In this document: positions 3,857-4,272 of the stretch, one piece after another
How positions within the stretch are numbered: the stretch's first letter is position 1
Layout of the letters: every line of letters begins with the position of its first letter
Assembly: GCF_046105845.1 (NCBI RefSeq)
Contig: NZ_CP151004.1
Reading direction: 5' to 3' (one strand)
Source: Escherichia coli
Lineage (GTDB): Bacteria > Pseudomonadota > Gammaproteobacteria > Enterobacterales > Enterobacteriaceae
DNA: 64,000 bases
The notes under the pieces: generated by a model
Seen by the model: only the letters and a program-made list of their open reading frames with translations
What the model was told of the DNA's origin: nothing
Databases searched by the model: none
Made by a program: the position numbers and the translations under genes

Positions 3857-4272
3857 TATCAGATAAACGATATGTCATGACAATTTACAGACAGCATCGA
3901 TATATAATTCATATTTATTAATTTTTAATAATGATTCTCATCTGAGTATGTATCATACAATAAGCATTATAAATAACCAATAAATTATTTATTATATTTA
4001 TATATTGCCCCACTCTTCAGTTATCCTGTCTAAAATAAATCTCTTTGTTTTCAAATGACTGTATTTTTATATAAAGTCAATCATTGCGAGCATGGATTCT
4101 TTTAGTTATATTACCAAGCAGCTCATATAATATTTTCAAGCCATTCTATCTCTTATTTTTTCTGTGGTTAACTACACCAGCTTTATTCATTTAAATAATT
4201 TGACTTATTAAAGCTGAATGTAAAAATAATCGCCAATATTGCTTGGATTTTTTAACAAAAGGAAAGGTATAA
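3857..4272 (+). promoter_or_regulatory. AT-rich leader and promoter region of the fimbrial operon (candidate nucleoid-protein silenced region)
   Basis: About 400 bp of strongly AT-rich non-coding sequence with many A/T tracts and short AT palindromes; RBS aaggaaagg at 4258-4266 precedes the first pilin ATG at 4273. Confidence 0.45.

Follow-up and report, generated by a model that had tools for sequence, protein, structure and literature searches.

A divergent allele of the auf fimbrial operon in Escherichia coli and its AT-rich upstream region, a likely target of H-NS silencing

A seven-gene operon for a chaperone-usher fimbria lies between glgP and glpD in the 64,000-nucleotide stretch of Escherichia coli DNA analyzed here, which we call the window. 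The genes occur in the order pilin, chaperone, usher, two minor subunits, second chaperone and adhesin-like subunit, and are followed by glpD on the opposite strand (Table 1). The pilin gene is preceded by an intergenic region of 482 bp (3791-4272), which extends from the glgP stop codon, ending at 3790, to the pilin ATG at 4273. The hairpin at 3805-3858 is the terminator of glgP, and positions 3857-4272 are therefore exactly the non-coding remainder of this region.

Table 1. Coordinates of the auf locus and of the features upstream of aufA in the window
Feature	Position	Strand	Remarks
glgP, glycogen phosphorylase, 815 aa, core gene 5' of the island	1343-3790	+	annotated in Ecol_316 and clone D i14
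glgP terminator, hairpin and T-run	3805-3858	+	inverted repeat; stem preserved in B2
Distal AT-rich part of the aufA upstream region	3857-4069	.	G+C ~22-26%; 58% identical to the B2 allele
Proximal upstream region, presumed aufA promoter(s) and 5' UTR	4070-4272	+	75% identity to B2, equal to that of coding DNA
Best-conserved upstream block	4082-4134	+	two overlapping sigma-70-like candidates
Poly-T tract of variable length	4156-4161	+	only indel among seven D-type upstream regions
Further candidate promoter, lineage-specific	4200-4227	+	TTGACT-16-TGtAAAAAT (extended -10)
Conserved leader, Shine-Dalgarno sequence and aufA start codon	4241-4275	+	equals published CFT073 auf knock-out primer arm GCTTGGATTTTTTAACAAAAGGAAAGGTATAAATG
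aufA, major pilin, 234 aa	4273-4977	+	Pfam Fimbrial, E=2e-21; 85% identical to B2 AufA
Conserved stem-loop 3' of aufA	4989-5024	+	15-bp perfect arms TAATTTCAGGTTACA / TGTAACCTGAAATTA, 12 nt past the aufA stop
aufB, periplasmic chaperone	5098-5850	+	PapD_N and PapD_C; 78% identical to B2
aufC, usher	5892-8483	+	PapC_N, Usher, PapC_C; 80% identical to B2
aufD, minor subunit	8474-9046	+	Pfam Fimbrial; 73% identical to B2
aufE, minor subunit	9054-9578	+	Pfam Fimbrial; 68% identical to B2
aufF, second chaperone	9520-10320	+	PapD_N and PapD_C; 66% identical to B2
aufG, large two-domain subunit	10313-11464	+	Fimbrial domain at residues 225-383 only; 81% identical to B2
Right-hand remnant of the variable segment	11465-11795	.	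K-12 homology resumes at 11796 (REP sequence, then glpD)

In K-12, the interval between glgP and glpD holds only yzgL. Divergence from K-12 begins four bases past the glgP stop codon and the two sequences rejoin at 11796; the variable segment thus measures approximately 8 kb. Scars of mobility were considered and rejected for this island, as no direct or inverted repeat of at least 9 nt links its two ends and it has no integrase gene. The glgP terminator comes with the island, and glgP of K-12 has another one. In the B2 allele described below, pairing in the terminator stem is kept through a compensatory double change from G-C to A-T.

The RefSeq coding sequence that corresponds to aufD in Ecol_316 has 177 aa, i.e., it starts at ~8513. 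The product of aufG has 376-383 aa with a pilin domain at its C-terminal end only, and is presumed to be the tip adhesin. The stem-loop behind aufA is kept in B2, in Citrobacter freundii and in a metagenomic relative (L008), with compensatory changes from A-T to G-C in C. freundii, and lacks a U-run. By analogy with other fimbrial operons, it probably serves as an mRNA stabilizer or a partial terminator that sets the stoichiometry of pilin to assembly proteins.

The original paper on auf is reportedly that of Buckles et al. in 2004. In uropathogenic E. coli CFT073, the operon corresponds to c4207-c4214 (Luterbach et al. 2018, PMC5956150). The operon in the window is a divergent, phylogroup-D-type allele of aufABCDEFG, an 8-kb island between glgP and glpD. 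We identify it as auf because of its gene order, its locus, an exact primer match and a named database protein. The gene layout is identical in clone D i14; the glgP-glpD locus is common to the window, clone D i14, UTI89 and Nissle, and the left junction is common to this allele and that of B2. The arm of the CFT073 auf deletion primer aufKO_f, GCTTGGATTTTTTAACAAAAGGAAAGGTATAAATG, which we took from the supplementary primer table of Luterbach et al. (PMC5956150), is found exactly at 4241-4275 and in clone D i14. Finally, a database protein of 97% identity has been named AufA by NCBI. A first-pass annotation, made from the sequence alone, had read the operon as a cryptic fimbrial one; its fimbrial nature stands, but the operon had not been recognized as auf.

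The auf genes of the window are 67-78% identical in DNA and 66-85% identical in protein to those of the B2 operon (clone D i14, L003), and glgP is 97.6% identical in DNA. Compared as an operon with that of B2/CFT073, the DNA identity amounts to 72-78%. Counting genomes with at least 95% identity over the upstream region, we found this allele in 227 of 5,426 complete E. coli genomes (4%). The B2 allele occurs in 558 of the same 5,426, including UTI89, Nissle 1917 and NC101. BLAST aligns the B2 genomes over window positions 4070-4272 only, at ~74%. By global alignment, the upstream regions of the window and of B2 are homologous throughout, glgP terminator included, with identity like that of coding DNA in the proximal ~200 bp and lower identity in the distal 213 bp (Table 1). 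The CFT073/B2 operon shares with that of the window the order of its seven genes, the locus, the left junction, the leader, the Shine-Dalgarno sequence and an AT-rich upstream region, and neither has a regulator gene. They differ in the distal half of the upstream region, whose similarity goes undetected by BLAST, and behind aufG, where B2 has three extra hypothetical genes, c4204-c4206, that the window allele lacks. These genes (L003 17044-19132) code for products of 236, 255 and 201 aa without Pfam match, and lie between aufG and glpD. They are H-NS- and StpA-bound in CFT073, according to the data set discussed below (PMC9765446, sheet 1E). In the window, the ~330 bp at 11465-11795 that stand in their place are mostly unalignable to B2.

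Relatives of the operon were found in other genomes. C. freundii CP057863.1 (L004 10001-17105) has a complete seven-gene auf-like operon, whose AufA is 77% identical. It occupies an unrelated locus, flanked by an ABC-transporter operon and a gene for a YfbU-domain protein, and has an upstream region of 1,049 bp. The metagenomic sequence L008 (1-1601; Logan SRR10097273) codes for an AufA homologue of 71% identity, located directly 3' of the end of glgP, with a glgP-aufA spacer of 444 bp and 27% G+C. From this adjacency it follows that the linkage of glgP and auf is older than the E. coli alleles, or that both were transferred as a unit. The operon is decaying in at least one lineage, since the annotation of E. 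coli O139:H1 W13-16 (L009 684-883) gives aufA as an incomplete pseudogene.

The main property of the region upstream of aufA is its base composition. Positions 3857-4272 have 25.2% G+C vs 51.0% for the 64-kb window, the lowest value of all 416-bp stretches in the 64 kb and the sole place below 30%. Over the whole intergenic region, G+C is 27.8% in the window, 27.1% in B2 and 26.8% in L008, and it is 31% in the proximal 500 bp of C. freundii. The AT-rich composition is conserved across these four lineages; the sequence is not, the leader and Shine-Dalgarno sequence excepted. The intergenic region has no credible open reading frame of at least 20 aa, and the description of a long, very AT-rich non-coding stretch before the operon is borne out. 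A hidden small regulator was rejected on these grounds and on the lack of a convincing open reading frame in the 1-kb upstream region of C. freundii auf. A known RNA element was rejected as well: an Rfam search of the region gave no match (none with E<0.4), and the putative leader RNA fold was no more stable than those of shuffled sequences (z=-0.57).

The first-pass annotation had also drawn attention to A/T tracts and AT palindromes. They exist: the region contains ten A or T runs that are 4 nt or longer and thirteen W-runs that reach 8 nt or more, and the palindrome quoted as an example, aataaattatttatt, is present at 3979-3993 with 7-nt arms. However, the palindromes are no more frequent than composition predicts. 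Three local palindromes were observed vs 1.9 expected from dinucleotide-preserving shuffles (P=0.29), and phasing of AA/TT at 10-11 bp was absent from the region (P=0.41). It is base composition alone that exceeds chance here; palindromes and A/T tracts add no information beyond it.

Several candidate promoters of aufA can be recognized in the proximal part. The best-conserved block, which is near-invariant between D-type and B2 alleles and among seven D-type genomes, holds the candidate TTGCGA(4084)-17-TATATT(4112) and a second one with a perfect TATAAT at 4126-4131 and a weak -35 element. A perfect TATAAT with a poor -35 would fit what is expected of an activator-dependent or silenced promoter. 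The third candidate, at 4200-4227, has a -35 element (4200-4205) that reads TTGACT in the window, Ecol_316 and W13-16 and GTGACT in four other D-type genomes, and both of its hexamers are degraded in B2. Sigma-70-like sites as such are not enriched in the region (5 found vs 6.0 expected from shuffles). Between these candidates and the pilin gene, the leader carries the Shine-Dalgarno sequence AGGAAAGG at 4260-4267, and ACAAAAGGAAAGGTA is invariant in all five aligned lineages.

A dedicated regulator is missing from the locus. A Pfam scan of the seven operon products detected pilin, chaperone and usher domains only. Neither E. coli allele has a regulator gene beside auf, nor has Citrobacter freundii, and the neighbors in E. 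coli are core genes. Annotation and Pfam likewise gave no homologue of papI or papB near the operon. The operon domains and the flanking annotation thereby agree with what had been noted from the sequence, that there is no regulator of the papI/papB, fimB/fimE or LuxR type.

Evidence for the mode of control comes from the orthologous operon of CFT073, a B2 allele. In the ChIP-seq data of Hustmyer 2022 (PMC9765446, Data set S1 sheet 1E), all genes c4204-c4214, i.e., auf and the three genes downstream of it, are H-NS-bound, with wild-type occupancies of 0.24-0.69 on a scale of 0-1 with a cut-off of ~0.07. The same sheet gives all of them as StpA-bound too. The value of aufA, 0.24, is the lowest of the operon; the table is arranged per gene, and the intergenic region lies outside its rows. 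The flanking glgP does not appear among the rows that our analysis covered. Furthermore, overproduction of TosR, a protein of the PapB family, raises expression of aufA-G by log2 2.6-6.6, i.e., 6- to 100-fold (PMC5956150). The authors describe TosR as the first regulator to be connected with auf, on whose regulation there is little knowledge, and state that PapB-family proteins are thought to antagonize silencing by H-NS and Lrp. They also reported poor expression of aufA in urine samples from human urinary tract infection, and placed a putative TosR motif in the distal AT-rich part of the B2 region.

The position of this motif aligns to ~3884-3925 in the window. Its matches were no better than those in composition-matched shuffles in either allele (P=0.32). 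The high-affinity H-NS motif TCGATAAATT had 3 matches with at most 2 mismatches in the region vs 1.7 in shuffles (P=0.26), and such matches are six times denser in the region than in the rest of the window. Neither a high-affinity motif nor phased A-tracts are obligatory for H-NS binding.

The occupancy of the CFT073 operon by H-NS and StpA and its induction by TosR make it most likely that silencing is nucleated on the AT-rich region and relieved in trans. From homology and composition, we consider it likely that the region in the window holds the promoter and regulatory sequences of aufA and that it is silenced in the same manner. In the mechanism that we propose, aufA would be transcribed from one or more promoters in the proximal ~200 bp, located in block 4082-4134 and/or at the lineage-specific site 4200-4227. 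The 416 bp at 25% G+C would be where H-NS/StpA filaments bind and nucleate, with the nucleation zone presumably at 3857-4069, where composition is conserved and sequence is unconstrained. The filaments would spread over the operon and keep its expression poor in standard culture. Relief would come from factors encoded elsewhere, either PapB-family proteins (e.g., TosR, in strains that have them) or environmental destabilization of H-NS, and would involve neither DNA inversion nor a switch by Dam methylation.

For this allele, we infer the promoter positions, the silencing by H-NS and its relief from sequence and from the orthologue. The proposal in the first-pass annotation of an H-NS-type silenced promoter gains support, by homology, from the H-NS/StpA ChIP-seq of the B2 allele in CFT073. 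Its expectation that expression would depend on global or distant regulators is in line with TosR, a distant PapB-family activator published for the B2 allele. Overall, its interpretation appears to be essentially right, with support by homology rather than by direct test.

H-NS-silenced cryptic chaperone-usher operons such as yad provide a useful comparison. Like them, auf has an AT-rich promoter region, is poorly expressed in culture, is occupied by H-NS in the CFT073 ChIP-seq data and would depend on cues for counter-silencing. The difference is that derepression in an hns mutant has been measured for yad, whose promoter rises >100-fold in CFT073 delta-hns (PMC13245861), whereas auf is known from ChIP occupancy and TosR induction, in the B2 allele only. 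We found no measured derepression of auf upon deletion of hns (and stpA) in the literature consulted.

A different view is that aufA has an ordinary, unsilenced sigma-70 promoter, that AT-richness is a legacy of the donor genome and that low expression reflects a weak promoter. The coding DNA of the island is likewise AT-biased (35-45% G+C), the distal half of the upstream region is unconstrained in sequence, and sequence-specific H-NS signals are at chance level, all of which this view would accommodate. It does not account for the H-NS/StpA binding of the orthologous operon given in the CFT073 table (PMC9765446, sheet 1E), for the induction of up to ~100-fold by a protein of a family thought to antagonize H-NS (PMC5956150), or for a G+C content near 25% that has been maintained in four diverged lineages. 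We regard it as quite unlikely.

Slightly less probable still is tuning of expression by lineage, through the length of the poly-T tract and the polymorphism of the -35 element at 4200-4205 (TTGACT vs GTGACT), perhaps with a post-transcriptional layer on the leader that would involve CsrA or a small RNA. The tract is T6 in the window and Ecol_316, T7 in W13-16, SCAID WND2 and EcPF15, and T8 in TUM14771 and CNREC_004-43. Leader positions 4241-4272 do not vary between the two E. coli alleles and are partly conserved in Citrobacter, and either regulator could use the GGA motifs at 4244-4246 and 4261-4263. However, a tract of 6-8 T in the seven genomes, compared with the ~9 nt or more sought for homopolymer slippage, is too short for frequent slippage; its lengths track lineage, and it is located outside both candidate promoter spacers. 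On the side of the leader, the upstream GGA is absent in L008, the predicted RNA fold is no more stable than those of shuffles, and the Rfam search gave no match.

A conjecture that combines some of these features with silencing is that 3857-4069 has been selected for composition alone, as a drifting pad for H-NS, and that the proximal poly-T tract and the gain of TTGACT with an extended -10 element may set the basal Auf levels of D-type vs B2 strains. We hold it to be unlikely. If it were true, the two auf alleles would form a natural pair for studying the evolution of silenced promoters.

The best known switches of fimbrial operons, the fim switch (fimS with FimB/FimE) and the Dam/Lrp/PapI/PapB switch of pap, are like the auf region in that they control the promoter of a major pilin 5' of a chaperone-usher operon. 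The auf region differs from both: its inverted repeats are not meaningful, it lacks a recombinase, GATC sites and papI or papB, and no inverted copy of it occurs in 785 genomes. A fimS-like element, in which inverted repeats flank 200-400 bp that are flipped by a site-specific recombinase, has a negligible probability. A search with spacers of 100-450 bp returned as its best inverted repeat two perfect 10-bp arms, AAATTATTTA at 3982-3991 and TAAATAATTT at 4192-4201, separated by 200 bp. However, a repeat at least as long occurred in 24% of dinucleotide shuffles (P=0.24), in keeping with the first-pass impression that no convincing repeats of this kind were present, and conservation in B2 is lacking for both arms. 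A recombinase gene is absent from the island and its borders, where the only genes apart from the seven fimbrial ones are glgP and glpD. A check for heterogeneity of orientation, which had been suggested with that impression, was carried out among assemblies and revealed no inversion in 785: the 227 with this allele and the 558 with that of B2 were colinear across the region without exception, each query being matched over 80% or more of its length by a single same-strand alignment. With a chance-level repeat, no recombinase and uniform orientation, inversion of the fim type is effectively refuted.

An epigenetic phase switch of the Pap type, with binding of Lrp under Dam methylation of two GATC sites, is equally improbable, and is refuted by the absence of these sites; the likeness to the pap regulatory region is that the region is AT-rich and lies upstream of a fimbrial operon. 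The inventory of GATC sites that had been proposed gave zero in the 482 bp of 3791-4272 vs 4.5 per kb in the window. GATC sites are also absent from the upstream regions of B2 and L008 and from the proximal 500 bp of C. freundii, and the locus lacks a homologue of papI or papB.

The region is ordinary and has largely been described already, since auf was a known operon and its mode of control is common among fimbriae. What our analysis adds is limited: the operon is named as auf, its allele, carried by 4% of complete genomes, is recognized as divergent, and the switch alternatives are formally excluded. Its import beyond annotation is small: a previously unlabeled cluster of 'fimbrial protein' genes in 227 genomes can now be named as an auf allele and tied to the published data on H-NS/StpA and TosR. 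With the same junctions, a DNA divergence of 22-28% and upstream regions that are AT-rich yet divergent in sequence, the two alleles could offer a convenient natural comparison for work on fimbrial silencing and counter-silencing.

The rest of the window is colinear with Ecol_316 and contains only core genes there. A segment of ~790 bp between envZ and pckA (41129-41801, minus strand) is absent from Ecol_316. It encodes a RelE-family protein of 105 aa and a helix-turn-helix (HTH) protein of 98 aa, and by its sequence looks like a type II toxin-antitoxin pair.
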